DNA from: Candidatus Acidiferrales bacterium
GTDB lineage: Bacteria > Acidobacteriota > Terriglobia > Acidiferrales > UBA7541
Direction: 5' to 3'
NCBI GenBank assembly: GCA_963735825.1
Contig: CAVTMR010000020.1
Location: 499,770-563,769 of the forward strand
DNA: 64,000 nucleotides
The first letter of the stretch is position 1. Every line of letters begins with the position of its first letter. Shown in pieces: positions 24,851 to 47,301 of the stretch. The translations under genes and the position numbers were made by a program. A model generated the notes under the pieces. That model was given only the letters and a program-made list of their open reading frames with translations, had not been told where the DNA came from and made no database searches.

Positions 24851-24913
24851 TTTCTATATCCTTCCCCGTCTTAACACTTTATTTGCCGAGTAACTTGAGC
24901 TAGTCTCCGGCCC

Positions 24914-27090: not shown

Positions 27091-27126
27091 CGAGAAACAA
27101 AAGGGGAAAGCTTGGGGGCTTTCCCC
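27091..27126 (-). terminator. terminator downstream of pilin gene (hairpin usable in both directions)
   Basis: ggggaaagc / ttgggg / gctttcccc. It is flanked by an A-run on the plus strand (T-run on the minus strand) and tctctctctt. Confidence 0.55.
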
Positions 27127-27151
27127 TCTCTCTCTTGAAGATTGATTCTGT

Positions 27152-27634
27152 TTACTGCAATGAAGGATCGCCACCGACGGCCAACGGGCTGCAACCTGCG
27201 CCCGTGCCGTTGTAGTGGATCACGCCATCTTGAATCGAGCAGAACATACGCTGACCGGTCGTACCGACCGTAAGCGGCGTTGCGGTGATCAAGTACGTGG
27301 TGTTAATGCCGTTGACAGGGGAGCCGCCTACATCGGTCAGCGTGTAGCCGCTCTTCACACCCGTTACGAGCACTGCGTCAATAATACCCGCAGCCGCGCA
27401 GTCACCCGCGCCAGGACCAATGTTCGCCAACGCAGCAGGGAAGCCGTTCGTGGGACACTGTGCCGCGTACTGCACGTTAGCCGTAGTCAAGGTGCGGACC
27501 GAGCCAACCGCGGAAGACTCGTTGGCCGAAATGCGTGCCTTGAGCAGGTTCGGAATGGCGATAGCCGCGATGATCAGAATGATCGCCACGACGATCAACA
27601 ATTCAATGAGAGAAAAGCCCTTTTGTTTCCGCAT
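27152..27634 (-). CDS. type IV pilin (prepilin N-terminal cleavage/methylation domain)
   Basis: MRKQKGFSLIELLIVVAIILIIAAIAIPNLL (G|FSLIE with Glu+5) after RBS aaggag. C-terminal Cys pair. ORF trimmed from 27715. Confidence 0.9.
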   Translation of the reverse strand: MRKQKGFSLIELLIVVAIILIIAAIAIPNLLKARISANESSAVGSVRTLTTANVQYAAQCPTNGFPAALANIGPGAGDCAAAGIIDAVLVTGVKSGYTLTDVGGSPVNGINTTYLITATPLTVGTTGQRMFCSIQDGVIHYNGTGAGCSPLAVGGDPSLQ

Positions 27635-27652
27635 GGAGATCTCCTTGAAAGA

Positions 27653-27681
27653 ATTATAGGAAGTGGGGAACGCCACCGCAA
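27653..27681 (-). promoter_or_regulatory. candidate sigma70-type promoter of the pilin gene
   Basis: On the minus strand: TTGCGG, a 17-nt spacer, then TATAAT, ending about 19 nt upstream of the ATG. Confidence 0.3.
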
Positions 27682-28497
27682 AGAACCATGGCGTAGCCAA
27701 CCGAGACCGTACCAAAGTGCTAGAGTTTCGGCAACATTGACATTATTTTAAACGCGTGCTGCCTTGTTACTTTTTTCCCGCCACACAGGAAGTGGGGTCA
27801 GAGCGCCAGTTCTGCCAAGACACGGTCACCCCACCCATCTTCTTAGCCGCTATCTGCCTTGTACGCTCGTTAAGGTTTGAGTCAATCGTGGTCTTCCTGC
27901 CACCATGCGACGAGCAAGTAGAGGTGCGTCAAGGCGACCGTGATGGACGCAGCTCCCGTACTTCTTCGGGAAACTAGGAATGCTCGGAAGCAGGAGAAAA
28001 CAGAAGCTCAGCCCCACCATCATCATCCCACCTTATACAAATTCTTCCTCTTCGTCCTGTGCAAAGTGAATTCTTGTCACTGTATGCAACGTGTAATCAC
28101 CGATCTCAGGAACTTCAACCAGTTGCGTAGAGCACGTTTACCTCGAATGAAAGGGCGGGGGCCACAGCAGCGTTTCTGCCGATCGGTCAGCTACCGTAGT
28201 GACATGCAGCGGCGAATGGCTCGCCAAGCTGCCAATCATCGCAATAGTTCAGCGGATAGGATCCTTTCAACCTTAGTTGAGCTTATAGCGTCGCGTCCCT
28301 TTATACACTTTTCTGGGTATGCCTCTGACAGGGGAGTGACCCTAAAATATCCAAGATCTCCTATCGAAGAGGTGGGAACAATAAAACAGCGGGTGCAGAG
28401 AGTCGCCGAATGGAATTAGAGAAATAGGGAGCATCGAATCGAGTTGTCACTGCCGTCTGGACCTACGGGATTCTGCGCAACGAATGTGGGTGAAGCG

Positions 28498-28824
28498 ATG
28501 GCCCAAATACCCTCCCGAAGGCTAAATTCTCGCGTCGAGTCGAGCAATAATGTGTGGGTCTATTGGGAATGTAATGGAGACCGCGATCTATCCCGCGTCA
28601 AGGATATGAGCGTGGGAGGGTTGTTCATTGAGACCCCGAGAATCAAGCGCCTAGGCGCGAAGGCCAATCTTCATTTTCTTGTACAAGAGGGACAAATTCG
28701 AGCTAACGCTGTAGTGCGGCATGTGAAACCCGGCGGCGGAATGGGATTGAAGTTCAATGCGGTGAGTGAACAGGACCGTCCGAATCTGGCAGCGTTGATG
28801 CGAAGACTTCGGAGTCTGTCCTGA
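28498..28824 (+). CDS. PilZ-domain (c-di-GMP-binding type) protein
   Basis: RRLNSR (RxxxR) and DMSVGG (DxSxxG) motifs; ..GMGLKFNAVSEQDRPNLAALMRRL. Confidence 0.8.
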   Translation: MAQIPSRRLNSRVESSNNVWVYWECNGDRDLSRVKDMSVGGLFIETPRIKRLGAKANLHFLVQEGQIRANAVVRHVKPGGGMGLKFNAVSEQDRPNLAALMRRLRSLS

Positions 28825-28895
28825 CTGCTCTCTGATGTGCGATATCCAATTGGCGACCAGCGGCGAGACTTAGGTCGGTGACACGCAAAGAAAAT

Positions 28896-29426
28896 TTATC
28901 GGATCCCGCCTGAAAGAAATGGTGTCGCGTGATAAGCTCGAAATACCGCTCCCACCTCAAGTCTGGAGGATTCCATGCAGACTCCTGAATCCAGCCTAGA
29001 GGTGGTGATAATACAGTCAGATAGTTCTGTACTGGAATAGTTGCGAACTTTCCCGTCAGGGAGTCCACGCCTACTTCTCTGGCTCATGACGGTTAATTTG
29101 CCTTTCTCTCCGCGACGCCGAGAGCGGAAAGCGATATTCATAAATGGATTGAAATTTCTGTCACGGAGGATTTCCCACGTCCGGAAACTGCTGATTAGGG
29201 TGAGGTTCGCCTTGGCCACGTATGTGACCACAGCTGCGTCGTCTATCAACCCTAGCACCGGAATGGAATCAGGAACGAGATCAAGCGGACTCACGAAGTA
29301 AATGACCGCGGCGACGAGCATGAGAATTGAGTCAGGTGGGTGTGAAACTTGCCTGCAAGATGAGCATGAAGAAGACGAAGAAATATTTGGAGGCTTTCCC
29401 AAGAGCCAAGGAGAAATTCGTAGCAC
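28896..29426 (-). CDS. DUF1232 (YkvA-like) membrane protein, probably frame-disrupted
   Basis: Core LVAAVIYFVSPLDLVPDSIPVLGLIDDAAV. The expected N-terminal part (EKLRSPLEKADRKSEKCYEFLLGSWESLQIFLRLLHAHLAGKF) sits in a different frame at about 29330-29520. The ORF's own N-terminus (SSSSSCSSC) and long C-terminal tail are not protein-like. Confidence 0.55.
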   Translation of the reverse strand: MLRISPWLLGKPPNISSSSSCSSCRQVSHPPDSILMLVAAVIYFVSPLDLVPDSIPVLGLIDDAAVVTYVAKANLTLISSFRTWEILRDRNFNPFMNIAFRSRRRGEKGKLTVMSQRSRRGLPDGKVRNYSSTELSDCIITTSRLDSGVCMESSRLEVGAVFRAYHATPFLSGGIR

Positions 29427-29760
29427 TTCTCTGATTTGCGGTCGGCTTTCTCAAGAGGGGAACGCAGCTTCTCCTCGTGTCCGACATACGACTCGGCTCT
29501 TATCCTTGCCTGCTCAAATGTGAGATGTTACTTGCTGCTCCAACATGTGCCGCCCGCACCTGCGAAGGTTATGAGTTAAGACAGAGGCGCGATGGAGTTC
29601 ACGGGCGCAAATTGTCGCGAACGGTTTTTGTTTTTGAAGCTGAGGGCAACTTCCCGCGAGCAGGGTCATGGTCGCCCTGACCCATCTCTACTTAACCTCT
29701 ATCTGACTTTTACGCCCAGGGGTGCTTTGAGTCAATGATGATTTCCGGTCAGAAAGATCG

Positions 29761-30126
29761 TTATGCTGTTGCCGTAATAGCTCGGCTGAAAGTCTCAATG
29801 GCTACCGTCTCGTCGTCCACGATGTCAATGACGGTATGCAGCTTTGTAATCTGCAGCATGTCCTGAACTTTGGCCGTGAGTTTGAGCAGCTTCAGGTCCC
29901 CCTTCACCTTCCGCACGCTCGCGGCGGCACTGACCAGATGACCTAAACCAGTGCTGTCAATGTAATTCACGTCGGCGAGATTGAGCAGAATTTTCCTATG
30001 TCCTTCGCCCAACAGGTCGCAAACCAATTCGCGCAGTGCAGCACTTTCTTCCCCAAAAACAATCTGGCCACTGATGTCCACGATGGCGACACCATTTACT
30101 CGTCGTGTGGTTGCCGTCATTTCCAC
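29761..30126 (-). CDS. STAS-domain anti-sigma-factor antagonist, orphan
   Basis: VAIVDISGQIVFGEESAALRE..KILLNLADVNYIDSTGLGHLVS..KGDLKLLKLTAKVQDMLQITKL. Confidence 0.9.
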   Translation of the reverse strand: MEMTATTRRVNGVAIVDISGQIVFGEESAALRELVCDLLGEGHRKILLNLADVNYIDSTGLGHLVSAAASVRKVKGDLKLLKLTAKVQDMLQITKLHTVIDIVDDETVAIETFSRAITATA

Positions 30127-30844
30127 TTGTCAACTCGTAGCACATTTAAGGACTGCAGGACTCTACCATTGGCCTCAAAAAGGGGAGTATACCACCAAGC
30201 GTACTTACTTTAGCGCAAGCCAGGTATAGCGGCGGAGATTTTTAGCCTCGCTCTAAAGCAACAGAGGAAACTGGTTTGGCTGGTGGGATGAATTGACCGC
30301 TGCCTCAGTAGGAATCTGCCTGAACACGTGGCGCCCAGGAGCGCGCAGTGATGTCTATAACAACGTTAGAAGGCACCGGAGGGGATCGAACCTGCCATCG
30401 CGTAAGGCGGCAGGCCCAAGTCTACAGTCCGCGATGCCCAACCAGGGTGGCGCTCCTGAGCAGGTTGGAGTCCCCCGCATGGGAAAACCACTGACAACTG
30501 AGAACATGAAGTCTCTCTCCAAAGCCGATATCAAAGAGTGGCAAGATGCTGGCGAAGAATATCGAAGGCTAGCTAAACAGGACGAGAAGAAGCGGGTGAA
30601 GTCCTGATGCAGGTCGGACCTGTCAGCATTCAGCCACAGAAATTGTGCCCAAAATTGTACCGACACTCTCCGTTTTGCCCGCTCTATCCGTTTTGTCTCT
30701 TCATAAAATCAGTAATTTAACTTACGTGTTTTCAACGGAACCAATGAGTTCAACTCCCACCCGGCTCCGACAAATTCTACTTTGGATCCCGATCAGTCGT
30801 AACCGCATGAACCAAGCTTGAGAGCCGCTCGCGCTCTCGCAATG

Positions 30845-31168
30845 CTAGTAGTCTTCTTCGGGCCGGCGACCGTACAAGCTTCGGGCGGATTTTGGTGCGC
30901 GAGCAGACCGGTAGGTGTCGAGCTCTGTGCTGGTGATTACGTATTGGCTTTCCGGAGGATGGTTCGAATGGGCGGCCAGTTCCGCTTGCAGTCTCTCCGA
31001 GCAAATGCCGGGGGCGTCCTGATAGCGAGCGCGATGCGATACGAAGGCTTCATTGGCAATGTTGAAGGTGAACTCGCGGTCCTCACCCTCCCCGCGGACA
31101 ACAAACGTGTATTCACGGGCGAGGGGTGTCGCCTGAAAGCCAACGTATTGGACTATGAAGCTGCTCAC
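30845..31168 (-). CDS. hypothetical protein (107 aa)
   Basis: Protein-like ORF (MSSFIVQYVGFQATPLAREYTFVVRGEGEDREFTFNI..). 4-nt ATGA overlap with the upstream ORF. Confidence 0.6.
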   Translation of the reverse strand: MSSFIVQYVGFQATPLAREYTFVVRGEGEDREFTFNIANEAFVSHRARYQDAPGICSERLQAELAAHSNHPPESQYVITSTELDTYRSARAPKSARSLYGRRPEEDY

Positions 31169-31413
31169 TTTGCGCCTGGAACGAAGACGCGAGCGGCATG
31201 GGTCGGAGCGGGCGCCGCGGCTTTCACGCGCTTGGCGCGCCGGCGCTTCGGTGGAACTCCATCCGCGGGTTCGACCACCATCAGGCTTGTGACGAATTTC
31301 TTAACTCCATGAGCGTCGAAGTCGATTGTGGTGCGCTCGGAGCTTGATTCAGTGATGACCCCACAGCCGTATTGGAGATGCTTGATGTACTGACCTGCCT
31401 CGAGAATTGCCAC
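31165..31413 (-). CDS. small DUF3553/Tudor-like protein with basic tail
   Basis: MAILEAGQYIKHLQYGCGVITESSSERTTIDFDAHGVKKF resembles the G..V.H..fG.G.V...F...G.K pattern. Followed by KRRRAKRVK. Confidence 0.55.
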   Translation of the reverse strand: MAILEAGQYIKHLQYGCGVITESSSERTTIDFDAHGVKKFVTSLMVVEPADGVPPKRRRAKRVKAAAPAPTHAARVFVPGAK

Positions 31414-31523
31414 GAAATCCTCCTCATTGTATGAACAGAGTTTGTCGCCTGCCCCACTCTCGCGAGGCAGTAAGCCATTAAAATTTGTGCGCTACCCACG
31501 AACCGAGGAAATCCCTCTGCTAG

Positions 31524-31856
31524 CTAGTAACGGCGCCCGTTTCCGCCAGACCTGCCGCCAGAATAGCCACCACGGCCGCCCGAGCGGTCGCCTCCGCCGC
31601 CACGGCCTTCCTGCGGACGGGCTTCATTCACTTGCAGGGCCCGGCCTTCTACATCCATACCGTTCAGTTCACCGATCGCTTTAGCCGCATCATCGCCGGA
31701 CCCAAGTTCCACGAATCCGAAACCGCGGGAGCGTCCCGTTTCGCGATCGGTGATAACGCGAGCCGAAGACACTTGATATCCTTTTGCGAGGAAAAGCTGT
31801 TGCAGGCTGTCATCGGTCATTCCGAAGGAGAGATTTCCAATATAGAGTTTTGTCAT
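31524..31856 (-). CDS. RRM (RNP-1/RNP-2) RNA-binding protein with Gly/Arg-rich tail
   Basis: LYIGNLSF (RNP-2), RGFGFVEL (RNP-1), tail GRGGGGDRSGGRGGYSGGRSGGNGRRY. Confidence 0.92.
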   Translation of the reverse strand: MTKLYIGNLSFGMTDDSLQQLFLAKGYQVSSARVITDRETGRSRGFGFVELGSGDDAAKAIGELNGMDVEGRALQVNEARPQEGRGGGGDRSGGRGGYSGGRSGGNGRRY

Positions 31857-32080
31857 ACGTTTTTCCTTTTATCTGTCTCTTTCAACGTTCCCAAAATGCG
31901 CAGGAACAGATGTTTCTTGCCCAACACCGCAAAATTGTCTTTCCCCCGCAATCGTGAGAACGAAGAATCCTTCAGGGAGCAACCAACCTTGAGCCCGCTG
32001 TGGACATTTTCCGTGATTTGTGTACTTGCTCGGAAAGATAAATTGCTTCCATGTGATTGCGTCGATTTCCGGAGTTGCGT

Positions 32081-32401
32081 TCAGGAAGCAACGGCTGAAG
32101 CCATTTTGTGGAAGGTGGAGTTAGCGACCATGTAGGTGTGGACGCGCAAGGCGCCGTCAATCACCTCGCTCAGCAGCTTAGTGACTTGTGCAAAGGCGGC
32201 GTGATCATATTTCTCGGCGTCAGCGCTATTTTCCCAGAAACTATACGCGTAGACTTCTTTGCCGCTTTGCGAGAACAGCGTAATTTCGTCGAGGAATCCC
32301 TTTTGCCTGCGGAGCAGGGGAATTACCTCGGTTTCCATTTTCTTGATGAACTCTCCGGCGCACTCCGCTTTCAAGTGCATGGAGACTTTGCGAGCGAACA
32401 T
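32081..32401 (-). CDS. ABM/Dabb-like small alpha+beta barrel protein
   Basis: 106 aa, MFARKVSMHLKAE..EVIPLLRRQKGFLDEITLFSQSGKEVYAYSFWENSADAEKY, the pattern typical of antibiotic-biosynthesis-monooxygenase-like domains. Confidence 0.6.
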   Translation of the reverse strand: MFARKVSMHLKAECAGEFIKKMETEVIPLLRRQKGFLDEITLFSQSGKEVYAYSFWENSADAEKYDHAAFAQVTKLLSEVIDGALRVHTYMVANSTFHKMASAVAS

Positions 32402-32511
32402 AAGACTCTCCCTGGTTTCCAGATCAAGGGAGTAATTCAGGCGATGCGCCGGGTCTAGGAGACCTGAAGGCAGCCTTGATCACAGTTACAGTTTGACCTA
32501 CTTTACAGGTC

Positions 32512-35462: not shown

Positions 35463-37181
35463 TTGTCGCAGGACATTCAGGAAAAACACGACCACGTTCG
35501 CAACCTCATAGCTTTGGGGAAGGAACGGGGTTATTTGCTGACGGAAGAGGTGAACGACTTCCTAGCGGCCGAGGAACATACGCCGGAAGAAATAGATACC
35601 GTCTTGTCCTCTTTTGAGAACGATGGCATCGAGGTCTACGAAGACGCCTCTGCCGCCAAGGTCGCGCGCGGCCTCCCTGAGGTTGCGGAATCTACCGAAC
35701 CGGCGATGCGCTACGATGCTGCTCGCGCCGAAGACCACGGAATCGATCCGATCATTTCTCCTCCGGAAAAGAATAGCGATCCCGTCAGGACGTACTTGCG
35801 GGAAATGGCCTTGGTTCCGCTGTTGACGCGCGAACGGGAAGTGTCCATCGCCAAGCGTATGGAGCGCGGTCACAAGCTGGTCCTGAAAACAATCTCTCGT
35901 TCCCCACTGGTTCTAAAGGAATTGATTTCCATTGGCGAAGAGCTTCGCACCGACGCGCGGCCCATCAAGACCATCATTCATTTCTATGAAGAGGAACTGA
36001 CCGCGGAAAAAATGGAAGACAAGAAGCGGCATGTTCTACGGATTATCGACAAGGTGGAGAAACTTCGCTCCCTGGGACTGAAGCAAGCGGCACGCGTCGA
36101 GGCCACACCAAAAGCTAACAAACGGGAGTATTTGCGGGCACAGGGCCGTCTGGCGCGAACAAAAGTGGAAATGTCGCTGCTGGTGCGCTCCATCGATTTT
36201 CAGGAACGGGAAAGAAAGCGCCTGATCGATATCATGCGGCACACCGTCGAACGACTGCACGCGATTGAGCGCGAGACTGCCCGGTTGGAACGCCGCGTAA
36301 CTGCCGCCCGTGGCGATGCCGCCGTCGAGGCGCGAAAGGAATTGCGATCGTGTCGTGCACAACGAAACACGATCAAGGAATCGAGCGAAGTTGAGTTGAG
36401 TAGTTTAAAACACACCCTGACGCTGATCCTGCGGGGTGAGGCCGAAGCTCAGCAGGCAAAAAGAGAACTGACGGAGGCAAACCTTCGTCTAGTAGTGTCC
36501 ATCGCCAAAAAGTACACCAACCGCGGGCTGCAGTTCCTCGATCTGATCCAGGAAGGCAATATCGGATTGATGAGGGGGACGGATAAGTTTGAATGGCGGC
36601 GCGGCTATAAGTTTTCCACGTACGCGACCTGGTGGATTCGTCAGGCTATCACGCGAGCGATCGCGGACCATGCCCGCACGATCCGTGTGCCGGTGCATAT
36701 GGTGGAGATGATTAACAAGCAAATGCGCACCAGCCGGCAACTTGTGCAGGAACTCGGTCGGGAACCCACCGCAGAAGAGATTGCCAAACGCATGGACATT
36801 TCCGTCGAGCAGGTGCGAAAAGCCAAGAAAATAGCGCAGGTGCCGATTTCTTTCGAGACGCCGGTTGGTGAAGATGAGGACGCGCACCTGAGCGATTTCG
36901 TCGAGGATAAGGGAGTGATCTCGCCCTCCGACGCGGCCATCAACTTGAACATGAAAGAACAGATGGCCACCATGTTGAAGACGCTAACGCCGCGCGAGGA
37001 GCGAATTATCAAGATGCGATTTGGGATTGAGGACGGAAACGAGCACACGCTTGAGGAAGTGGGCCGGACATTCGCCGTGACGCGCGAGCGCATTCGTCAG
37101 ATTGAAGCCAAAGCGCTGCGCAAACTGCGGCAGCCCTCGCGTTCTAGAAAGTTCCGCGTCTTTTTGGAAGGAGCATTCTAG
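35463..37181 (+). CDS. rpoD: primary RNA polymerase sigma factor (sigma-70)
   Basis: TTG start. [59 protein letters not shown], and the region 4.2 motif [28 protein letters not shown]. Confidence 0.97.
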
Positions 37182-37660: not shown

Positions 37661-37846
37661 ATGACGATCACATTTCAGAAGCGCCAGAAGGAAATGAAGC
37701 GGCAGGAAAAGCAACGCGAGAAGGCAGCGCGGCGTGAACAAAAGAAGCTTGCAAAGCGTGCGGAAAAAGAAGCCGCCGTCGAAAACGCAAACGGGAACTC
37801 GGACGTAGTCGTGGACGAGGTCGCCGGTTCCGAGCCGCAAGGCTAA
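37661..37846 (+). CDS. small highly basic Lys/Arg/Glu-rich protein (61 aa)
   Basis: RBS aaggag 6 nt upstream. MTITFQKRQKEMKRQEKQREKAARREQKKLAKRAEKE.., same strand as the RRM gene. Confidence 0.5.
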   Translation: MTITFQKRQKEMKRQEKQREKAARREQKKLAKRAEKEAAVENANGNSDVVVDEVAGSEPQG

Positions 37847-38182
37847 AATGGCACAGCTGGACTCCCTACGACGTAACTAGCTTTTCCAATTGGCCAAGCC
37901 CTCTGCGCGCTCAGAAGCCCCAAGCGCACCTGTCCCCTTCCGTGTTGCTCAACCTGACCAACACTCCAAGACCACCTCGCGCACTTGAACCTCCGCGACG
38001 TAGTAAACTCCTTACAAGGCAATCCTTTGCCGGTGCTTCCACCTATGGCGGGGCGCGTATTTTTTGGTTGTCATAGGAGCCGGGAAATGGCATTGTCACA
38101 CCGCCAGACTTCCGAGTTCTTTTAACCCACGAGATCGGACCTGCCGGCGGCAACAGTTACCCAGGTGCGCGGACGAAGGGCG

Positions 38183-38692
38183 ATGAAAAGCAGCAACGGG
38201 AAGGGAAGAAAGGCATTCAAGCACTTCCATGCGGATTTGCTTTTGAAATTAGAAATGAGGAGCAATCCCGAAGCACTATGCTTGGTGCGTGCGACGCTGG
38301 AGCGAGCGGCGGAGGCTCTGAACTTCCGTTCGGTGGAACGACGTGCCATTGTCCGGTCCGTGGATGAGGCACTTGCCAACGTGATGCGGCATGCGTACGA
38401 AGGGAAGAGCGGCCTGCCGATTGTCGTGACATTCCGGCGGCTCTACGGGCAGAATCATCCGCAGACTTGCGCCGGAATCGAAGTTTTGCTGGAAGACGAA
38501 GGAGTTGCAGTGAACCCATCAAAACTGAAGGGGCGCCCAATCGAGGACATCAGGCCGGGGGGCCTGGGGCTGCATTTCATGCGACAAGGCATGGACGAGG
38601 TGGAATTCAGCCGGAAACATGGAAAGAATCAACTTCGTATGGTGAAGTATTTGGCCCTAGCAAAGACCGAATCGGGGTCTCAAGGAGAATAG
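38183..38692 (+). CDS. RsbW/SpoIIAB-like anti-sigma serine kinase (HATPase_c_2)
   Basis: N-box ALANVMRHAY, DEGVAV (G1-like), RPGGLGLHFMRQGMD (G2). ATG 38183 lies within the GTG-initiated ORF 38165..38692. Confidence 0.85.
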   Translation: MKSSNGKGRKAFKHFHADLLLKLEMRSNPEALCLVRATLERAAEALNFRSVERRAIVRSVDEALANVMRHAYEGKSGLPIVVTFRRLYGQNHPQTCAGIEVLLEDEGVAVNPSKLKGRPIEDIRPGGLGLHFMRQGMDEVEFSRKHGKNQLRMVKYLALAKTESGSQGE

Positions 38693-38695
38693 ACC

Positions 38696-39028
38696 GTGCA
38701 GATTGCTGCCCGCGAATCACAAGGTGGAACAATTCTGGATCTCTCGGGCGATATTGACCTGGCCCATTCTCCCGCGATGCGCAAGGCGCTTCTCGGAGAG
38801 ATCAAGGAGAAACGCACGCCTAAAGTTTTCTTGAACTTGAAGAACGTCCGTTATATCGACAGTTCCGGGATTGCCTCGTTGGTAGAAGGGTTGAAGGCGT
38901 CGAGGGAGATTGGTTCAAGGCTTATTCTGTACAGTTTGAGCAACACGGTTCGCGAAGTTATGCAGCTTTCCCGCCTGCAGAAGATCTTCGAGATTTACGA
39001 AAATGAAGAGCAGGCGCTTTCCTCCTGA
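38696..39028 (+). CDS. STAS-domain protein (anti-sigma antagonist / MlaB-like)
   Basis: GTG start 3 nt after the kinase stop. TILDLSGDIDLAHSPAMRKAL..VFLNLKNVRYIDSSGIASLVEGLK..RLILYSLSNTVREVMQLSRL. Confidence 0.9.
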   Translation: MQIAARESQGGTILDLSGDIDLAHSPAMRKALLGEIKEKRTPKVFLNLKNVRYIDSSGIASLVEGLKASREIGSRLILYSLSNTVREVMQLSRLQKIFEIYENEEQALSS

Positions 39029-39067
39029 CATGCTATTATCTTCCCACTTTTAGGACAACAGGCGCTC

Positions 39068-39865
39068 GTGGACTTCCTTCAAGCAACAGGCGCGGCTTTC
39101 ATTAACGGTCTGGCGTATCTGGGGTCTCTGACGACCCTTGCCGGGCGCGCCGCGTATTTCACCTTCATTGGACCATTCCAGGGCAAACCCTTGCGCCTTC
39201 AACGCGCCATCGGGCAGGCGATGGAAACGGGCGTGCGCGCGTTGCCCATTCTTTCGCTGATTACTTTTTTCATTGGCTTGATCCTGGCTTTGCAGGCTGC
39301 CTACGAACTCCGGCGCTTCGGTGCGATGAGTTATGTGGCCAGCGCCGTAGCACTTTCTATGACGCGTGAACTCGGGCCATTGATTACGGCTGTGATTGTG
39401 ATTGGCCGGTCCGGTTCCGCATTTGCCGCCGAACTGGGAACGATGAAAGTCACCGAAGAGATTGACGCGCTGGAGACCATGGCGATCAACCCCGTCAGTT
39501 TTCTCGTTGCCCCGAAATTCATGGCCATGGTTCTGATGCTGCCATGCCTGACGATTTGGGCAAACTTCATGGGTATCCTCGGCGGGTCGTTGTTTGGTGT
39601 GCTTCAGGCGGATTTCACGTTCCAGACATACATTACTGCCTCGCTGGATGCGCTGTTTCTGCGCGACGTCGTCACCGGGTTGATCAAAAGCTTCATGTTC
39701 GGAATTACCATCACGGCGGTGGGTTGCCATGAAGGCCTGGCCACCGGAGGTGGCGCGGAGCAAGTGGGCCGTTCAACTACGCGAGCAGTGGTGATGTCGA
39801 TCTTTCTTGTGATTCTGGTGGACCTGGTCTTTACCATGTTGTTCTACTTTTTGGGAGAACACTAA
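39068..39865 (+). CDS. mlaE: MlaE-family ABC permease
   Basis: GPLITAVIVIGRSGSAFAAELGTMKVTEEIDALETMAINP; multi-TM. Confidence 0.93.
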   Translation: MDFLQATGAAFINGLAYLGSLTTLAGRAAYFTFIGPFQGKPLRLQRAIGQAMETGVRALPILSLITFFIGLILALQAAYELRRFGAMSYVASAVALSMTRELGPLITAVIVIGRSGSAFAAELGTMKVTEEIDALETMAINPVSFLVAPKFMAMVLMLPCLTIWANFMGILGGSLFGVLQADFTFQTYITASLDALFLRDVVTGLIKSFMFGITITAVGCHEGLATGGGAEQVGRSTTRAVVMSIFLVILVDLVFTMLFYFLGEH

Positions 39866-39870
39866 GCCGT

Positions 39871-40737
39871 ATGCCGGAACAATTCGAACGGTCTGACGAA
39901 GAGCAGGTCCCCGATGGTCCAATGATCTCTCTGCGCGATTTGCGCGTCAGTTACGACGGCCGGGAGATCCTCCATGGAATCAACTTTGATGTGCAACGTG
40001 GGGAGACGCTCGTGATTCTGGGTGGCTCGGGCTCGGGAAAGAGCACCTTGTTGCGCACTCTGGTCGGTTTGGAAATACCCAGTTCCGGGGAAGTGTGGAT
40101 TCGAGGCAAGAACTTTGTGGCAATTTCCGACGCCGAACGGGATGAAATTCGCAAGAAGCTGGGAATGTCGTTTCAAGGCGGAGCGTTATTCGGGTCGATG
40201 ACCGTCGGAGAAAACGTAGCGCTTCCCCTACGTGAACATACGAAGCTGGAAGAACCCACGGTTGAGATCATGGTGCGACTGAAGTTGGACCAGGTAGGTT
40301 TGTCGGGATTTGAAGACTTTTTGCCCTCGCAGTTAAGCGGCGGCATGAAAAAGCGCGCTGCCGTCGCGCGTGCGCTGGCCATGGATCCCGAGATCCTCTT
40401 TTTCGACGAGCCGTCGGCGGGGCTCGATCCGATCATCGCCGCCGGCATCGATCAGCTGATTCTGGAGTTGAAAAAGGCCTTCCACATGACGATTATCGTC
40501 GTCACCCACGAACTGGCCAGCGCTTTTCTGATCGCCGATCGAATGGTGCTGATCAATAAGGGAGATTTGGTGGCAAGCGGCACAGTTGCCGAGATACGAA
40601 ACAGCAAGCATCCCAGGGTGCGGCAGTTCCTGGATCGTGTCCCTGAACCCGCGGTGGCGCAAGAACTCGATTATTTGCAGATGCTGACGGAGCCCTCATC
40701 GAAAGCAGGCGAGGGACGACAGGGGAAGAGCAGGTAA
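39871..40737 (+). CDS. mlaF: MlaF-type ABC ATP-binding protein with C-terminal extension
   Basis: GGSGSGKST, LSGGMKKRAAVARAL, ILFFDEP, VVTHEL; about 40-aa tail after the ABC core. Confidence 0.93.
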   Translation: MPEQFERSDEEQVPDGPMISLRDLRVSYDGREILHGINFDVQRGETLVILGGSGSGKSTLLRTLVGLEIPSSGEVWIRGKNFVAISDAERDEIRKKLGMSFQGGALFGSMTVGENVALPLREHTKLEEPTVEIMVRLKLDQVGLSGFEDFLPSQLSGGMKKRAAVARALAMDPEILFFDEPSAGLDPIIAAGIDQLILELKKAFHMTIIVVTHELASAFLIADRMVLINKGDLVASGTVAEIRNSKHPRVRQFLDRVPEPAVAQELDYLQMLTEPSSKAGEGRQGKSR

Positions 40738-40739
40738 AG

Positions 40740-41708
40740 ATGGAATCAAAACGCGAACAGGTGTGGGTCGGTCTGTTTGTCATTGTTGCGGCCACGCTAT
40801 TGATCGTGACCGTGTTTGTGCTTACCGGCGCGTTCGCTGGATCCGCAAAGACCTTTCGTGCGCGGTTTCACAACGTCGCCGGATTGGAACCCGGAGCCAC
40901 TGTTCGCTATGCGGGCGGTCCGAAGATTGGCCGCGTGGAGAAGGTCGAAATTGATCCGAATGATCCTGCGCTCATGGACATGCAATTCAGCGTTAAAAGC
41001 AATCTCCCGGTCAAGACAGACAGCCACGTAGCAATTCTCAGCTTCAGCCCGCTCGGCGACAATCACCTGGAAATCAAGGCGGGCTCTCCCGGCGCACCAC
41101 AGGCAGCTTCCGGATCTTTTCTGCCCTCTGACCCGTACGTGGGATTCAATGACCTGACGGCACAAATCAACCAGCTGGCACCCCAGGCGAAGGAATTGCT
41201 AACGAACCTTAACGACCGGGTGGTCCAGTTGAAGATTACTGTTGACCGGATTAACGACCTCCTGAACGATCGAAATCGTGAAAATGTGTCTGCCTCTTTG
41301 GCTGAATTGCATGGCATGTTGGCCGAGAACCGACCCGAGATCCGCAGTACTCTCAAGAACGTAAACGCGGCGAGCGCGAAAATAGGACCGCTATTGGATC
41401 AACTTCACACAACTATCGATCAGACCCAAGGAACACTGAAAAGAGTGGATGGCTTGATCGACGAGAACCGAGAAGATGTTCGCGCGTCGGTCATAAAGCT
41501 GCGGCAGTCGCTGGAAAATATTTCCGAGCTGACGGCACAGCTGCAGCAGATGTTGGACAATAACGATGAGAACATCAATCAGGTTATGAACAATTTACGG
41601 ATCATTACGGAGAATCTGAAAGTCTTCAGCTACACAATCAAAACGCATCCCTCGAGTTTGATTGTTCCGAACAATGCGCGAGATCGTAAGCCGGGAGAGA
41701 AGCCATGA
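40740..41708 (+). CDS. mlaD: MlaD/MCE-domain protein
   Basis: TM anchor VWVGLFVIVAATLLIV, MCE core GLEPGATVRYAGGPKIGRVEKVEI, long coiled C-terminus. Confidence 0.9.
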   Translation: MESKREQVWVGLFVIVAATLLIVTVFVLTGAFAGSAKTFRARFHNVAGLEPGATVRYAGGPKIGRVEKVEIDPNDPALMDMQFSVKSNLPVKTDSHVAILSFSPLGDNHLEIKAGSPGAPQAASGSFLPSDPYVGFNDLTAQINQLAPQAKELLTNLNDRVVQLKITVDRINDLLNDRNRENVSASLAELHGMLAENRPEIRSTLKNVNAASAKIGPLLDQLHTTIDQTQGTLKRVDGLIDENREDVRASVIKLRQSLENISELTAQLQQMLDNNDENINQVMNNLRIITENLKVFSYTIKTHPSSLIVPNNARDRKPGEKP

Positions 41709-42376
41709 GAATCGTATCATTCCGGACCGGTAGGACACGTAGCTTGGCGCTGGCCGCGCCTTGCGCCTCACTTTGGTCGGCCAGTGCATTGTCGATTCTC
41801 GCAGTCGTATTCTTTGTAGTCGGATGCGGCGGTGCCAGGCCAATAAAGTACTACCAGCTGAGCTATCCAACCACTGCGCCCCCTCCCTCCCCTGATGCGA
41901 TAAACACTACCCTCATGGTCAGATCGTTCGAGGCGTCGCATCTTTATCTTGGTGACCAGATTGTTTATGGGTTCGATTCCCCAGAAATGGGGGTGTATCA
42001 AACTCAACGGTGGGCCGAGCCGCCGGTGGAAATGCTTCAGGACGCACTGGTTCGCGGGTTGCGCTCGACGGGCAGATTTCGCGCCGTCTACACGATACGG
42101 GCCGAAACCGGTAGTCAGTACATCCTGGCAGGCCATCTGTATGACTTTAAGGAAGTAGACGGAAGCACGATTGTGGCTCGGCTAAACTACGCGGTCCGCT
42201 TGCGGGACCGCAAGACGGGAACGACAGTCTGGACGCACATGTACACCCATGATGAGCCGGCATCGGAGAAGAGTGTCGCGGCGGTGGCCACCGCGATGGA
42301 CAAGAATGTGCAACGCAGCGTACAGGAAGTGCAAGCGGGACTCGAAGATTATTTTCGAGCGAATCCACCGAAGTAG
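41705..42376 (+). CDS. ABC-transport auxiliary lipoprotein (DUF330/PqiC-like)
   Basis: 4-nt overlap with the MCE gene; lipobox FFVVGC; size and position as in MCE operons. Confidence 0.75.
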   Translation: MRIVSFRTGRTRSLALAAPCASLWSASALSILAVVFFVVGCGGARPIKYYQLSYPTTAPPPSPDAINTTLMVRSFEASHLYLGDQIVYGFDSPEMGVYQTQRWAEPPVEMLQDALVRGLRSTGRFRAVYTIRAETGSQYILAGHLYDFKEVDGSTIVARLNYAVRLRDRKTGTTVWTHMYTHDEPASEKSVAAVATAMDKNVQRSVQEVQAGLEDYFRANPPK

Positions 42377-42930: not shown

Positions 42931-45900
42931 CTAGACTGAGGGTTCAGGGATGACGGCGGGCTTCTTCCGACGCACCAGCGAGCGGACAACGACGTAAAGC
43001 ATCGGGATAAACAAAAGATTCAGAGTCGTTGCGGCGATCATTCCGCCGAAAACCGTGGTGCCCACAGACACGCGTCCTGCGGCACCTGCGCCTTGAGCGA
43101 TCACGAGAGGCACTACGCCGAGAATAAACGCCAGCGAGGTCATCAGGATGGGGCGCAACCGGATGCGAGCCGCTTCCACCGCCGCGTCCAGCGGGGTCAG
43201 CCCCTGCTCTTGAAGTTGTTCAGCAAACTCCACGATAAGAATGGCATTCTTGCTCGCCAACCCAATCAGCATCACCAGTCCGATCTGGCAATACACGTCA
43301 TTCGTCAGCGCGCGTAATTTCACCGCCGCCAGGGCCCCCAGCAACGCAACGGGCACGCCCAACAGCACGATGAAGGGCAGCACATAGCTTTCATACTGCG
43401 CGGCCAGCGTGAGGTAAACGAATACCATGCCCAAGCCGAACAGAATGACCGCTTTTCCCGCAGATTGGATTTCTTCCAGCGACAGGCCGCTCCATTCGAA
43501 CGTCATACCCTGCGGCAGGACTTTCTTCGCAATTCCTTCCATGGCCGCGAGGGCTTGGCCTGAACTCACGCTGGTCGCCGCGGAACCATTGATTTCGGCC
43601 GAGCGGAACAGATTGTAATGCGTGATGACCTGCGGATTCGCTTCCTGCTTGATCTCCACAACATTGTCGAGGGGAATCATCTTGCCCGTGTCAGATCTGA
43701 GGTAATACGTGCGGATGTCTTTTGCTTCCGAACGGAATTTCTGGTCGGCTTGCAGGTATACGCGGTAAGAGCGATTGTTAAAATCGAAGTCATTTACGTA
43801 CACCGAGCCCATGAACACCTGCAACGCGTCGGTGATCTGGCTAAGCGGGATCTGCAAGCTCTTAGCCTTTTCGCGGTCGATTTTCACCAGATACTGTGGG
43901 TCATTCGCGGTAAAGCTGGTGAACAATCCGGTCACCAGGTCGCTCTGGTTCCCCGAAGCCACCATTTGATTGGCGGTATTGGCTAGCGTTTGTAGCGTGT
44001 TTCGTCCCAGGTCTTCAAGTTCGAAGGTGAAGCCGCCGAATTGGCCCAGTCCTTCCACCGCCGGGGGATTGAAGGGCACAGCGACTCCCTCGGGAATACT
44101 CATCAGAGGGCCGCGCAGCTTCTCGACAACCGCGAAGCTGGAATGCTCCCGCCCCTTGCGATCTTTGAATTCCTCCAAATTGAGGAACATGAGTGCGCGG
44201 TTCGGGGCGTTTCCCGCGAAACTGAATCCCACGATGGTGAAGGCACCGTTGATCTCGGGCACGTGAGAAATCACCTCTTCCACCTTTGCGCAAACTTGCT
44301 GCGTGTACTGCAGGGACGCGCCCTGAGGTGTTTGCACGGCCACAATCAGATATCCTTGGTCATCTTCTGGAATGAATCCCTGGGGGATTTTCGCGTAGAG
44401 CAGATACGCGCAACCAAGCACTCCCAGGAACAATAACAGCGATACATATTTCCATTCCACGACGACGTGTACGACTTTGCGATAGGAATCTCTTACAGCA
44501 TCAAAAGCCCGGTTGAATGCCCGGAAAAAAGCACCTTGCGCTCGTTCGCGGTGGTGCCCCAGGAAAACGGCCGAGAGGGCGGGCGTCAGCGTCAAGGCGT
44601 TGAACGCGGAGATCGACACAGAGAAAGCGATCGTCAGCGCAAATTGCCGGAAAAGGATTCCCGTGGTTCCGGGGAAAAGCGCGACCGGCACGAACACCGA
44701 CACCAGCACGAGGGAAGTTGCGATCACCGCGCCTGCAACCTCTTTCATCGCCACACTGGCGGCGTTGTGTGGCTCCGTGATTCCCTCGACAATGTGCCGT
44801 TCCACATTTTCAATCACCACGATGGCGTCATCGACTACGAGGCCAGTCGCCAGCGTGATTCCAAATAGTGTCAGCGTGTTGATCGAAAATCCCAGCACCT
44901 TTACGAAAATGAACGTGCCGATCAGCGACACCGGAATAGTTACCGCCGGAATAAACGTGCTTCTCCAATCCTGCAAAAACAGGAAGATGACCAGGATAAC
45001 GAGTCCGATGGCTTCAAGCAGGGTGAACAGCACTTCGCGAATGGACTCGCCGATCACCGTAGTGGTGTCAAACGCCACGGCGTACTTGAGTCCGGGCGGA
45101 AAATTCTTGGACAAGCGAGCCAGTTCGGCCTTGGCGGCCTTGTCCACGTCGAGTGCGTTGGCCCCGGGAAGTTGCGTGACGCCAACGCCGACAGCGTCGT
45201 GTCCATTGAATCTCAGGATGGAGCCATAATCCTCAGCCCCCAGTTCGGCACGGCCCACGTCCTTGATGCGTACCAGTGTTCCGTCCGTTCCCGTTTTCAG
45301 AATGATGTTTTCGAATTCGCTCGGCTCCGTCAGACGGCCAATGGCGCGTACACTGATTTGATACGACTGACCGCGATTCGATGGCGGTTGGCCTACCTGT
45401 CCCGAAGCGACCTGGACATTTTGCTCCATAAGCGCATTGAGAACCGTCGTGGCGGTCAGACCGCGTTGGGCCAGGCGAGATGGGTCCAGCCAAAGGCGCA
45501 TCGCATATTTGCGCTCGCCAAAAATGAAGACGTCGCCGACGCCCTTGACGCGCTTCATTGCATCCCTGACGTAGACATCCAGATAGTTGCTCAGGAACAG
45601 ACTGTCGTACTGGCCGCCCTCCGAATAAACGCCCGCGCCAAACACAAAACCCGCTGCCTGCTTGGTAATAATGACGCCCGTGTTCTTCACAGCGTTCGGC
45701 AATCGTCCCAAAGCCTGGCTGACCCGGTTCTGCACATCGACGGAAGCGAGGTCGACGTCGCGGGTCACATCGAAAGTGACAGTGATCTGGCTGGTACCAT
45801 CGTTCCCGCTCGAGGAAGAAATGTACTTCATTCCGGGCACGCCGTTGATCGCTTGCTCCAGTGGAATAGTGACCGCGGATTCCACCGCCTGCGCGTTTGC

Positions 45901-46056
45901 GCCGATGTACCCGCTGGAAACCACAACTTGTGGCGGGGCCAACTGAGGAAATTGCGCGATGGGCAGAGAGGGAATCGCAATCGCTCCGCCGAGAATAATC
46001 AGCAGGGCGCAAACGGTCGCGAACACCGGCCTTTGGATGAAAAAATCAACAAACAA
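42931..46056 (-). CDS. RND efflux transporter permease (AcrB/HAE1-type)
   Basis: 1041 aa, 12-TM architecture, MFVDFFIQRPVFATV.., LVVDDAIVVIENVERH, GLASKNAILIVEFA. Confidence 0.96.
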   Translation of the reverse strand: MFVDFFIQRPVFATVCALLIILGGAIAIPSLPIAQFPQLAPPQVVVSSGYIGANAQAVESAVTIPLEQAINGVPGMKYISSSSGNDGTSQITVTFDVTRDVDLASVDVQNRVSQALGRLPNAVKNTGVIITKQAAGFVFGAGVYSEGGQYDSLFLSNYLDVYVRDAMKRVKGVGDVFIFGERKYAMRLWLDPSRLAQRGLTATTVLNALMEQNVQVASGQVGQPPSNRGQSYQISVRAIGRLTEPSEFENIILKTGTDGTLVRIKDVGRAELGAEDYGSILRFNGHDAVGVGVTQLPGANALDVDKAAKAELARLSKNFPPGLKYAVAFDTTTVIGESIREVLFTLLEAIGLVILVIFLFLQDWRSTFIPAVTIPVSLIGTFIFVKVLGFSINTLTLFGITLATGLVVDDAIVVIENVERHIVEGITEPHNAASVAMKEVAGAVIATSLVLVSVFVPVALFPGTTGILFRQFALTIAFSVSISAFNALTLTPALSAVFLGHHRERAQGAFFRAFNRAFDAVRDSYRKVVHVVVEWKYVSLLLFLGVLGCAYLLYAKIPQGFIPEDDQGYLIVAVQTPQGASLQYTQQVCAKVEEVISHVPEINGAFTIVGFSFAGNAPNRALMFLNLEEFKDRKGREHSSFAVVEKLRGPLMSIPEGVAVPFNPPAVEGLGQFGGFTFELEDLGRNTLQTLANTANQMVASGNQSDLVTGLFTSFTANDPQYLVKIDREKAKSLQIPLSQITDALQVFMGSVYVNDFDFNNRSYRVYLQADQKFRSEAKDIRTYYLRSDTGKMIPLDNVVEIKQEANPQVITHYNLFRSAEINGSAATSVSSGQALAAMEGIAKKVLPQGMTFEWSGLSLEEIQSAGKAVILFGLGMVFVYLTLAAQYESYVLPFIVLLGVPVALLGALAAVKLRALTNDVYCQIGLVMLIGLASKNAILIVEFAEQLQEQGLTPLDAAVEAARIRLRPILMTSLAFILGVVPLVIAQGAGAAGRVSVGTTVFGGMIAATTLNLLFIPMLYVVVRSLVRRKKPAVIPEPSV

Positions 46057-46113
46057 CTCAGCTCACCATCTCCTGAAGAATCGTGCTATGTTGTTGCCGA
46101 AACGGTGTTGGAA

Positions 46114-47301
46114 CTAGTTGCTCTTTGCACCCGCATTTTTTTCGCTCTCTCCGGGTTTTCCAGCTTCCTTGAATTGCTCGATGACCGGCGCGCCATCTTG
46201 TAGAAATTGCGTACCTGAAACGATGACGTGGTCGCCAGGTTGCACTCCTTCGAGCACGGCATAATTATTTCCGACGATTTCGCCGAGTTTCACAGCCCGT
46301 TGCCGCGCGACGGTGCCTTTTGCATCTTTTACCGCGACGAACAGGAAATACTCGCCGCTGATTCGTTGCACCGCGAGCACCGGAACAACCGGACCATTGC
46401 GCGTGCCCCAGGCAACCTGTGCCCGCACCTGTTGGGAAATTCGTAATTTGGTATTGGAGTTGCCGACTGCGGCCTTCGCCAACACGGTCTGGGTGTCGGT
46501 GTCGACTTGCGGAGAAACGAAGGTAATTTCCGATTGCGTCAGCACCGCACCGGATTCATCGAGCAGCTTCACCGGCAGACCGAGGCGCAAGTCTTTGGAT
46601 CTGCTTGCCGGCACATAGATGTACGCCTCCAAAGCGCCGGGCACGTCCACGGTGGTCAGGAGCGTCGTGACACCCACTCGGTCACCTACGCGTACTGGAA
46701 TATCCCCAACGATGCCCTCCATCGGCGCACTCACCTGGTAATAGCGGAGCTCCACTTGTTGCTGTTGCACTTGATGCTCCAGCGATTTCAGCTGCGCAAC
46801 TGCCGTTTCATAGTTGGTTTGCGCGTTATCGAAGTCTGCCTTGCTGATAACTCCGGCCGCTTGCAACTTCACCGCGCGGTCCAGATTCACTTTCGCCAAA
46901 CGCACATTGGCTTCCTGTGCAAGACGCGCCGCTTCCTGGCTGTTAACTGTGGCTTCCTGCTTGAGCGGGTCGATTTGCAGAAGGGGTGTCCCGGCGGTCA
47001 CGCGATCGCCGGACTTCACGAAGATCTTGGTCACTTGCCCTTCCACCTGCGGATTGATGGTTGCGGAATGCCGCGATTTCAAAATGGCCAGGTACTCGGT
47101 CGAATCCGTCAGCTTCTGCGATTCCACCACGAGCACCTGCACTGGTGTAGCGGGTGGCGCAGCCGCTCCACCATCCCGGCCTTTTTCGCCGCAGCCAGTC
47201 AGACCAGCAGAGGCATAAAGGGCCGCCAGCACCAGCACGTATCGGGGCAAAAGGGAGGACTCGATAAGGGTCTGTGAATTACAACAAGAATGAGTCCGCA
47301 T
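46114..47301 (-). CDS. RND efflux periplasmic adaptor (membrane fusion protein)
   Basis: Lipobox AGLTGC; alpha-hairpin (AQLKSLEHQVQQQQVELRYY), lipoyl and beta-barrel segments. Directly upstream of the RND pump. Confidence 0.92.
   Translation of the reverse strand: MRTHSCCNSQTLIESSLLPRYVLVLAALYASAGLTGCGEKGRDGGAAAPPATPVQVLVVESQKLTDSTEYLAILKSRHSATINPQVEGQVTKIFVKSGDRVTAGTPLLQIDPLKQEATVNSQEAARLAQEANVRLAKVNLDRAVKLQAAGVISKADFDNAQTNYETAVAQLKSLEHQVQQQQVELRYYQVSAPMEGIVGDIPVRVGDRVGVTTLLTTVDVPGALEAYIYVPASRSKDLRLGLPVKLLDESGAVLTQSEITFVSPQVDTDTQTVLAKAAVGNSNTKLRISQQVRAQVAWGTRNGPVVPVLAVQRISGEYFLFVAVKDAKGTVARQRAVKLGEIVGNNYAVLEGVQPGDHVIVSGTQFLQDGAPVIEQFKEAGKPGESEKNAGAKSN

Follow-up and report, generated by a model that had tools for sequence, protein, structure and literature searches.

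A SpoIIAB-like kinase and a SpoIIAA-type STAS protein encoded with an Mla-type lipid transporter in Acidobacteriota: a candidate phospho-switch of envelope lipid transport

A 64,000-nucleotide stretch of a Candidatus Acidiferrales genome (GenBank assembly GCA_963735825.1, contig CAVTMR010000020.1, positions 499,770 to 563,769 of the forward strand), referred to here as the window, carries six tightly packed plus-strand genes in which an RsbW/SpoIIAB-type serine kinase and a single-domain STAS protein directly precede the subunits of an MCE/Mla-type lipid transporter, namely MlaE, MlaF, MlaD and a PqiC-like lipoprotein (Table 1). The genes are separated by gaps of 3, 39, 5 and 2 nucleotides, followed by a 4-nucleotide overlap of the MlaD and lipoprotein genes, and the kinase has an alternative GTG start at 38165. 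In Pfam, the products match HATPase_c_2 (E-value 3.9e-20), STAS (5.5e-20), MlaE (7.9e-80), ABC_tran (1.2e-32), MlaD (3e-13) and ABC_trans_aux (PF03886, formerly DUF330; 3.4e-15). The block 38183-42376 contains no gene besides these six, with neither MlaC nor MlaA in the operon, and promoter-like or terminator-like matches within it occur at no more than chance level. We infer that the six genes form one operon and would be co-transcribed. A sequence-only reading had described this arrangement from the letters of the window alone, and its account of the block holds: all six open reading frames are present at the coordinates it gave, the domain identities it assigned are borne out by Pfam and NCBIfam matches and by fold matches of the kinase and STAS models, and the kinase and STAS motifs it quoted (ALANVMRHAY, GGLGLHFM and YIDSSGIASLV) are all found in the translations. 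It missed a second Mla-type operon at 15220-18677 and two orphan STAS genes elsewhere in the window.

Table 1. Features of the kinase-led operon, its paralogue and related genes. Coordinates refer to the window unless a locus precedes them; aa, amino acids.
Feature	Position	Strand	Description
Kinase gene	38183-38692	+	SpoIIAB/RsbW-fold serine kinase, 169 aa, operon gene 1
STAS gene	38696-39028	+	Single-domain SpoIIAA/RsbV type, 110 aa
Ser56 codon (DSSG)	38861-38863	+	Predicted phospho-acceptor
MlaE gene	39068-39865	+	MlaE-family ABC permease, 265 aa
MlaF gene	39871-40737	+	MlaF-family ABC ATPase, 288 aa
MlaF C-terminal extension	40627-40737	+	~35 aa, contains ...PEPAVAQELDYLQMLTEP...
MlaD gene	40740-41708	+	Long MlaD/MCE protein, 322 aa
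Lipoprotein gene	41705-42376	+	PqiC-like outer-membrane lipoprotein, 223 aa, lipobox VVGC
Upstream element	38068-38096	+	Conserved promoter-like or operator-like motif
STAS_2-MlaE probable fusion	15220-16344	+	374 aa; MlaE part 197 bits
MlaF2	16347-17111	+	254 aa, 49% identical to MlaF, no tail
MlaD2 (long)	17116-18081	+	Paralogous operon
PqiC-like lipoprotein (weak)	18078-18677	+	Last gene of paralogous operon
Orphan STAS	22909-23280	-	Pfam STAS 9e-18, DSSG
Orphan STAS	29761-30126	-	Pfam STAS 1e-15, DSTG
SpoIIE/PP2C gene	L079:12212-13075	-	Likewise in L067, L069, L070, L073, L074, L076-L078 and L080

The linkage of the two regulatory genes to the transporter genes is widely conserved. A pattern scan covering one genome per GTDB species returned 290 species with a relative of the kinase, and the best 80 loci were kept; these are 50-96% identical and come mostly from Ca. 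Acidiferrales (Acidobacteriota, Terriglobia). The closest locus, L001, is 94-100% identical across the six proteins, and this assigns the window to Ca. Acidiferrales. As far as each contig reaches, the order kinase-STAS-MlaE-MlaF-MlaD-lipoprotein is intact in 80 of 80 loci, with all six genes present in 69, so that the adjacency described for the single sequence recurs throughout its relatives with differing flanks; the upstream synteny of a DEAD-box helicase gene, rpoD, an RRM gene and a small open reading frame is shared by the six closest loci only. Median identity to the window across the 69 loci is 60% for the kinase, 81% for the STAS protein, 81% for MlaE, 88% for MlaF, 64% for MlaD and 56% for the lipoprotein. 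The STAS protein, with an identity equal to that of MlaE, thus evolves in the manner of the cytoplasmic transporter core. In 54 loci, three nucleotides separate the kinase stop codon from the STAS start, and at this common junction the AAGGAG Shine-Dalgarno sequence of the STAS gene sits in the last codons of the kinase (Glu-Gly-Glu-stop; 38684-38695 in the window). Since the kinase C-terminal Glu-Gly-Glu overlaps the STAS ribosome-binding site, its conservation may partly be a constraint at the nucleotide level. Some of the 80 loci (L019, L024, L025, L042, L047, L059, L063 and L076) carry SMAG-bin labels of other phyla (Methylomirabilota, Limnocylindrales/Limnocylindria, Baltobacteraceae, Verrucomicrobiia, Eisenbacteria, Dongiaceae and Eremiobacteraceae). 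We took these labels for likely binning errors, given that the contigs are 55-65% identical to Acidobacteriota loci and that several have the RND synteny downstream in common with them. In L018, L030-L032 and L054, an additional MlaE gene near the kinase belongs to a third, STAS-less paralogue and was set aside as uninformative.

The same pattern extends to soil metagenomes and to a second phylum. Among 80 metagenomic contigs in or beside the same family, from a scan that mostly returned core-family members, the STAS gene follows the kinase in 64 of 67 cases and MlaE follows the STAS gene in 55 of 58, the exceptions being L139, L143 and L148. Kinase relatives form a continuum in a profile search against 1.84 billion cluster representatives, in which 39 reach E ≤ 1e-30 and 1040 reach E ≤ 1e-10. 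In the tree, the core kinase family stands apart from an outgroup clade with 30-45% identity to the window. This clade comprises at least 7631 proteins at E ≤ 1e-10, the named members of which belong to Phycisphaerales or Phycisphaeraceae (Planctomycetota). Twelve outgroup contexts were picked for their long contigs; ten of them contain the kinase, then STAS, then MlaE, often as overlapping genes, and seven of these ten also encode an MlaF-type ATPase and a needle-like protein of ~450 residues. The remaining two consist of one lone kinase and one kinase-STAS pair with a different gene after it. Identity to the window STAS is 29-41% for the Mla-linked STAS proteins of the outgroup, mostly at or above the level of the orphan STAS paralogues in the window (29-30%), and the D-S-S-G acceptor motif is intact in all of them except one. 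With 80 of 80 genome loci, about 95% of metagenome loci and 10 of 12 outgroup contigs keeping it, the adjacency goes far beyond what chance would produce. The outgroup cassettes also contain a small protein encoded before the kinase, often with a 4-nucleotide overlap, which in most cases has a HEAT_2 match (unmarked, weak or faint; for example L088:6636-6992, L089:6582-7004, L090:6606-7004 and L085:3747-4082). Four of these sequences have a signal- or lipobox-like N-terminus, and the protein could be an extra periplasmic component of the module.

In domain content and fold, the two regulatory proteins resemble those of partner-switching modules. The kinase scores 72.6 bits against Pfam PF13581 (HATPase_c_2; cut-off 27.4), and its closest solved relative in a PDB sequence search is RsbW (6M36). 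The best fold matches of its AlphaFold2 model (predicted local distance difference test score, pLDDT, 72.6) are SpoIIAB (1TID, 1TH8 and 1L0O) and RsbW, with Foldseek template modelling (TM) scores, TMt, of 0.73-0.87; SiaB is also among the fold matches. Its ATP-binding residues in the N-box (E62, N66 and H70), the G1 box (D105 and G107) and the G2 box (G126-G129) do not vary among 19 homologues with identities as low as 57%. The kinase stays under the NCBIfam equivalog cut-offs for RsbW (NF003144, 47.9 bits versus 145) and SpoIIAB (TIGR01925, 30.3 bits versus 135). The STAS protein scores 85 bits against NCBIfam ant_ant_sig, above the cut-off, and its AlphaFold2 model (pLDDT 92) reaches TM-scores of 0.73-0.81 to TM1442, RsbV and SpoIIAA; P. 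aeruginosa MlaB is matched by its sequence at an E-value of 3e-4 only. It is a canonical SpoIIAA/RsbV-type protein that lies outside the MlaB equivalog. Ser56 of its YIDSSG motif aligns with Ser58 of SpoIIAA and with Thr52 of E. coli MlaB, it sits at the N-terminus of helix alpha2 (residues 56-71) in the model, and 79 of 79 members of the STAS family retain both Asp55 and Ser56. By these sequence features, Ser56 is the predicted target of the adjacent kinase.

The transporter genes that follow encode an MCE system with a long periplasmic component. MlaE scores 243 bits against TIGR00056, above the cut-off. For MlaF, the best NCBIfam match is MlaF PRK11831, under its cut-off, and the best PDB matches are MlaF of A. 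baumannii, P. aeruginosa and E. coli (~1e-57). Past its ABC domain, MlaF carries the C-terminal extension noted in the sequence-only reading, ~35 residues that are at least 90% conserved over the family and are not shared by MlaF2, the paralogue in the window, which ends ~13 residues beyond an FL/FF motif common to both. MlaD (TIGR00996, MCE, 3e-28) has an N-terminal membrane anchor, one MCE domain (Pfam MlaD, residues 37-115) and a helical extension of ~200 residues, in which positions 138-299 give coiled-coil-type and Mce4_CUP1 matches in Pfam. The lipoprotein has a weak NCBIfam pqiC match, and its lipobox was taken from the translation. Overall, the transporter resembles the Mpc (Mla-Pqi chimeric) system of Brucella more than E. 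coli MlaFEDCB. By analogy with MlaB, the STAS protein would bind MlaF.

The second Mla-type operon in the window provides an informative counterpart, as it has the same architecture and no kinase, and it is a closer match to Mpc than the kinase-led operon. Specifically, its first gene probably encodes a fusion of a STAS domain to MlaE. The N-terminal 100 residues match Pfam STAS_2 (5.6e-5), ant_ant_sig (2e-4) and mlaB_1 (7e-4), weakly and concordantly. Alignment of this domain to the STAS family with hhalign gives a probability of 11% (E 0.0027), which is low because both profiles are shallow, and a PDB sequence search with the domain returned no match. The fused domain reads RIDGAG where the free STAS protein has YIDSSG, so that DGAG stands in place of DSSG. 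The STAS protein as a query retrieved relatives of 83-95% identity only, so STAS-MlaE fusions are not visible that way, and a search of PLSDB plasmids with it for STAS-Mla contexts gave generic STAS proteins of Streptomyces and cyanobacteria only. The fusion of STAS to MlaE, in Brucella and probably in this paralogue, argues that the STAS module belongs to the transporter. Moreover, in this one genome a free STAS protein goes together with a kinase, a tailed MlaF and an acceptor serine, whereas the probable tethered STAS domain occurs without them, which is what a phospho-switch acting on STAS-MlaF binding predicts. The window further contains a region of lower G+C content (19500-32500, 0.51-0.55) with few long open reading frames, which includes the two orphan STAS genes as well as genes for a PilZ-domain protein (28444-28824), a second RRM protein (31524-31856, minus strand) and, also on the minus strand, a pilin-like protein (27152-27715) that has a methylation motif at its N-terminus. 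An IS110-family transposase gene lies at 9838-10716.

A candidate phosphatase emerged from clustering the open reading frames that flank the genome loci. In the ten most divergent genome loci that reach far enough, a stand-alone SpoIIE/PP2C gene (Pfam 9.3e-31, ~287 residues) lies directly after the lipoprotein gene in convergent orientation (Table 1). A SpoIIE/PP2C gene also follows the lipoprotein gene in 22 of the 26 metagenome loci with room for it, of which 19 are strong and convergent and three are weaker and on the same strand (for example L109:10205-11047). In these sister clades, the transporter genes are bracketed by a complete set of kinase, STAS protein and phosphatase without a sigma factor. 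Elsewhere, the flank differs. In 43 genome loci, the next gene after that of the lipoprotein, in the same orientation, encodes a DegT/DnrJ/EryC1-family sugar aminotransferase (for example L007:5881-7254 and L036:12458-13639), and in many of them GcvH-like, 4Fe-4S and NrfD-like genes come next. In the window, a convergent RND/MFP efflux pair (42931-47301, minus strand) follows the operon instead of the DegT gene.

The region upstream of the kinase contains a conserved element of its own. Among the sequences that precede the kinase gene in the window and in 79 genome loci, 49 of the 80 share a motif of the form ATTTTTnGGTTGTCA-N13-AAATGGCAT(C/T)GTC at a constant position, ~90-135 nucleotides before the kinase start and ~90-115 in the window. 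Across loci (for example L016, L027 and L041) it reads TTGTCA, 16-17 nucleotides, TGGCAT(C/T)GT; the window copy is TTGTCA-N16-CATTGT preceded by TGG, with an A/T-rich stretch upstream. It is single in the window, where 0.02 matches are expected by chance, and it is not found in the most divergent, PP2C-linked clade. The element reads best as a promoter of the -35/extended -10-like kind, or as an operator, and its position supports the kinase as the first gene of the transcript. A sigma-54 promoter was considered and rejected, as there is no TTGC at -12 spacing. The leader between the last upstream open reading frame and the kinase start measures 336 nucleotides, and an Rfam scan found no RNA family anywhere in the window, which argues that this leader contains no riboswitch. 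That last open reading frame (37661-37846, plus strand) lies between the RRM gene and the operon and encodes 61 Lys/Glu-rich residues with no Pfam match; it is 72-95% conserved, in the six closest relatives only.

How might such a kinase and STAS protein act on a transporter? In the SpoIIAB:SpoIIAA and RsbW:RsbV complexes, which are the top structural matches of the kinase and STAS models, the same serine faces the ATP site of the kinase. For the transporter side, the published structure of E. coli MlaFB indicates that MlaB binds the helical subdomain of MlaF by its helical face, with Thr52 near the centre of the interface, and that the tail of the neighbouring MlaF inserts Tyr261, Leu265 and Leu266 beside MlaB. 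The phosphomimetic MlaB variant T52E weakens MlaF binding, and without MlaB, MlaF is lost from the complex. Based on this published MlaFB interface and the serine position in the kinase complexes, we propose the following switch. MlaE and MlaF would form the ABC core, the long MlaD a periplasmic needle and the PqiC-like lipoprotein an outer-membrane cap. The unphosphorylated, free STAS protein would dock on the MlaF helical subdomain, with the C-terminal tail of the adjacent MlaF keeping it in place, and would thereby activate or stabilise the MlaF dimer on MlaE, so that the ATPase is engaged and the transporter is on. The kinase would bind the same face of the STAS protein and phosphorylate Ser56; the phosphorylated protein would release MlaF, turning the transporter off. 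A SpoIIE/PP2C phosphatase, encoded beside the operon in the sister clades and presumably elsewhere in this genome, would reset the switch. The sign of the effect, with the unphosphorylated protein as the on-state, is also inferred. We lean, with only modest confidence, towards a reading in which the STAS protein serves an Mpc-like transporter as its MlaB-equivalent subunit, with phosphorylation of Ser56 gating the binding of STAS to MlaF. The sequence-only reading had proposed partner-switch control of envelope lipid trafficking, and the domain identities, the conserved adjacency and the lack of a co-travelling sigma gene support that interpretation. For the broader proposition, namely that such a phospho-switch is widespread in Acidobacteriota and Planctomycetota and that an MCE/Mla transporter is turned on and off there by a SpoIIAB-like kinase and a PP2C phosphatase through phosphorylation of its MlaB-equivalent STAS subunit at the residue contacting the ATPase, the evidence leaves the balance about even.

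Several observations weigh against this reading. The STAS protein reaches 23.4 bits against the NCBIfam mlaB_1 equivalog, under the cut-off of 90, and its model matches MlaB structures with TM-scores of 0.58-0.65, at ranks 46-49 of the fold search. As it is nearer to RsbV/SpoIIAA than to MlaB in both sequence and fold, it could be a plain anti-sigma antagonist. The MlaF tail shows a motif resemblance to the C-terminal extension of the E. coli protein and no reliable alignment, and the STAS matches of the fused paralogue are all below curated cut-offs. Kinase-STAS pairs without MlaE (3 of 58 metagenome loci and 1 of 12 outgroup contexts), together with the one lone kinase among the 12, indicate that the pair can work away from Mla. 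The two orphan STAS proteins of the window, which are 29-30% identical to the operon STAS and have no adjoining kinase, phosphatase or sigma gene, are of the phosphorylatable type and suggest a wider partner-switching network in which the kinase may have other clients. Lastly, the window has no SpoIIE/PP2C gene by tblastn, by a hidden Markov model of the sister-clade phosphatase or by Pfam scans of the larger open reading frames, as the sequence-only reading had also stated.

The most serious alternative is a classical anti-sigma module, in which the kinase sequesters a distal or the primary sigma factor, the STAS protein is only its antagonist, and the pair shares the Mla operon through common membership of one envelope-stress regulon, with the transporter controlled by transcription only. 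The resemblance of both proteins to RsbW/SpoIIAB and RsbV/SpoIIAA in sequence and fold speaks for it, as do the public annotations, which label the kinase RsbW and the STAS protein anti-sigma-B antagonist, yet both proteins score far under the RsbW, SpoIIAB and SpoIIAA equivalog cut-offs. Canonical modules, such as the sigB and spoIIA operons, are co-operonic with their own sigma gene. Here, no sigma gene abuts the kinase, and the only sigma-70-family gene found in the window is rpoD (35463-37181), ~1 kb upstream, just as first described; the search used tblastn with the C-terminal half of rpoD, and an extracytoplasmic function (ECF) sigma gene in small unscanned open reading frames is possible. 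While rpoD likewise is the sigma-70-family gene near the operon in the six closest loci, which favours the alternative, the same search found no sigma-70-family gene within ~8 kb in 74 of 80 genome loci, where an ECF sigma could be missed, and there is none in the 12 outgroup contexts. The orphan STAS paralogues and the few loci in which the kinase-STAS pair lacks MlaE would also suit an anti-sigma role. Co-regulation, however, leaves unexplained why STAS stands directly before MlaE in two phyla, often with overlapping genes, and why Brucella, and probably the window paralogue, has STAS and MlaE in one fused protein. We therefore regard the anti-sigma explanation as unlikely.

Could the transporter instead be the sensor? 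In this scenario, the STAS protein shuttles between MlaF and the kinase, the working state or substrate load of the transporter sets how much STAS protein is free to neutralise the kinase, and the real output of the kinase lies in a further client, be it a sigma factor or an enzyme. The same linkage evidence applies, the STAS face around Ser56 serves both types of partner on the published structures, and the orphan STAS proteins point to a larger network. The kinase also evolves faster than STAS, MlaE and MlaF, as expected with lineage-specific clients; no candidate for such a downstream client, however, is linked to the block in any locus. The adjacent PP2C gene of the sister clades fits a self-contained unit of kinase, phosphatase, STAS protein and transporter, and the sensor scenario requires one more partner, so we consider it improbable, and somewhat more so than the anti-sigma module. 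Finally, that the kinase is non-catalytic or vestigial, or its adjacency an inherited accident without functional coupling, is very improbable: the second glycine of its G1 box is replaced by Ala in the window (DEGVA) and lid residues 115-126 of its model are of low confidence, but the N-box, the G1 Asp and Gly, the G2 box and the STAS Asp-Ser pair are invariant in sequences down to 50% identity, the linkage outlasts the turnover of the flanks and recurs in another phylum, and the translational coupling is conserved.

The proposed phospho-switch would bear on an area in which little is known, namely the post-translational regulation of MCE/Mla lipid transporters. The authors of the E. coli MlaFB structure suggested that phosphorylation at Thr52 could switch MlaB and called this phosphoregulation an intriguing, untested possibility, and a kinase for MlaB is undescribed in the open-access literature searched, as the sequence-only reading had supposed. 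That search found no papers tying RsbW/RsbV-type proteins to Mla genes, although an earlier description elsewhere is possible; a review of STAS-only proteins makes no mention of MlaB or ABC transporters, and a phylogenomic survey of Mla components across Bacteria makes no mention of a kinase. The operon family described here offers a dedicated kinase, an invariant acceptor serine and a sister-clade phosphatase, linked to transporter genes in hundreds of species, and the paralogous operon adds a same-genome control with a probable tethered STAS domain that would not be phosphorylatable. As such, the hypothesis is directly testable with recombinant proteins. If true, this would be the first partner-switching module with an ABC transporter as its output, extending partner switching from transcription to membrane transport and providing a natural answer to the question of MlaB phosphoregulation. 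It would also show how abundant soil bacteria tune their envelope lipid traffic, and correct the routine annotation of these proteins as RsbW and anti-sigma-B antagonist.

Several known systems come close to the operon. Like E. coli MlaFEDB (Thong 2016, PMC5016091; Kolich 2020, PMC7367683), it encodes an MlaE/MlaF/MlaD core and a small STAS protein in the same operon, its MlaF has a C-terminal extension, and its STAS protein has a Ser/Thr residue at the position of MlaB Thr52, which in E. coli is the centre of the MlaF interface. In contrast to E. coli Mla, for which neither a kinase nor a phosphatase of MlaB has been described and phosphorylation of MlaB has never been shown, a kinase is present; the STAS protein is of the full-length SpoIIAA/RsbV type and precedes the transporter genes rather than coming last in the operon; and MlaC is missing, MlaD is long and a PqiC-like lipoprotein is encoded. 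These last traits recall the MpcEFDA system of Brucella abortus, in which STAS is fused to MpcE, MpcD has 331 residues, a PqiC-like lipoprotein comes last and there is no MlaC (PMC12436622). Both systems share an MlaE-MlaF core, an MlaD of ~320-330 residues with a helical needle, a PqiC-like last gene, the lack of MlaC and a STAS module directly N-terminal to, or upstream of, MlaE. They differ in that the Brucella STAS is fused and no kinase is described there, whereas the operon studied here has a kinase and a separate gene for a phosphorylatable STAS protein, 39 nucleotides upstream of MlaE.

On the regulatory side, the closest parallels are the SpoIIAB-SpoIIAA-SpoIIE and RsbW-RsbV-RsbU/P modules of Bacillus, which likewise consist of a GHKL serine kinase and a single-domain STAS protein with a DSSG motif, encoded as a tightly coupled pair, and which are matched in the sister clades by a SpoIIE-family PP2C gene beside the operon. 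The operon departs from them in having no linked sigma gene, an ABC permease as its conserved neighbour, scores far under the equivalog cut-offs and a gene order that runs from kinase to STAS, the reverse of rsbV-rsbW and spoIIAA-spoIIAB in Bacillus. Partner switches with a non-sigma output have precedents: SypE-SypA of Vibrio fischeri is one, and in BtrW-BtrV of Bordetella and HsbR-HsbA and SiaB-SiaC of P. aeruginosa, a switch protein set by a kinase and a phosphatase acts on a non-sigma target. Some of these systems target a cyclase or a secretion system and none is known to target an ABC/MCE transporter, which is the target proposed for the kinase-STAS pair of Ca. Acidiferrales.

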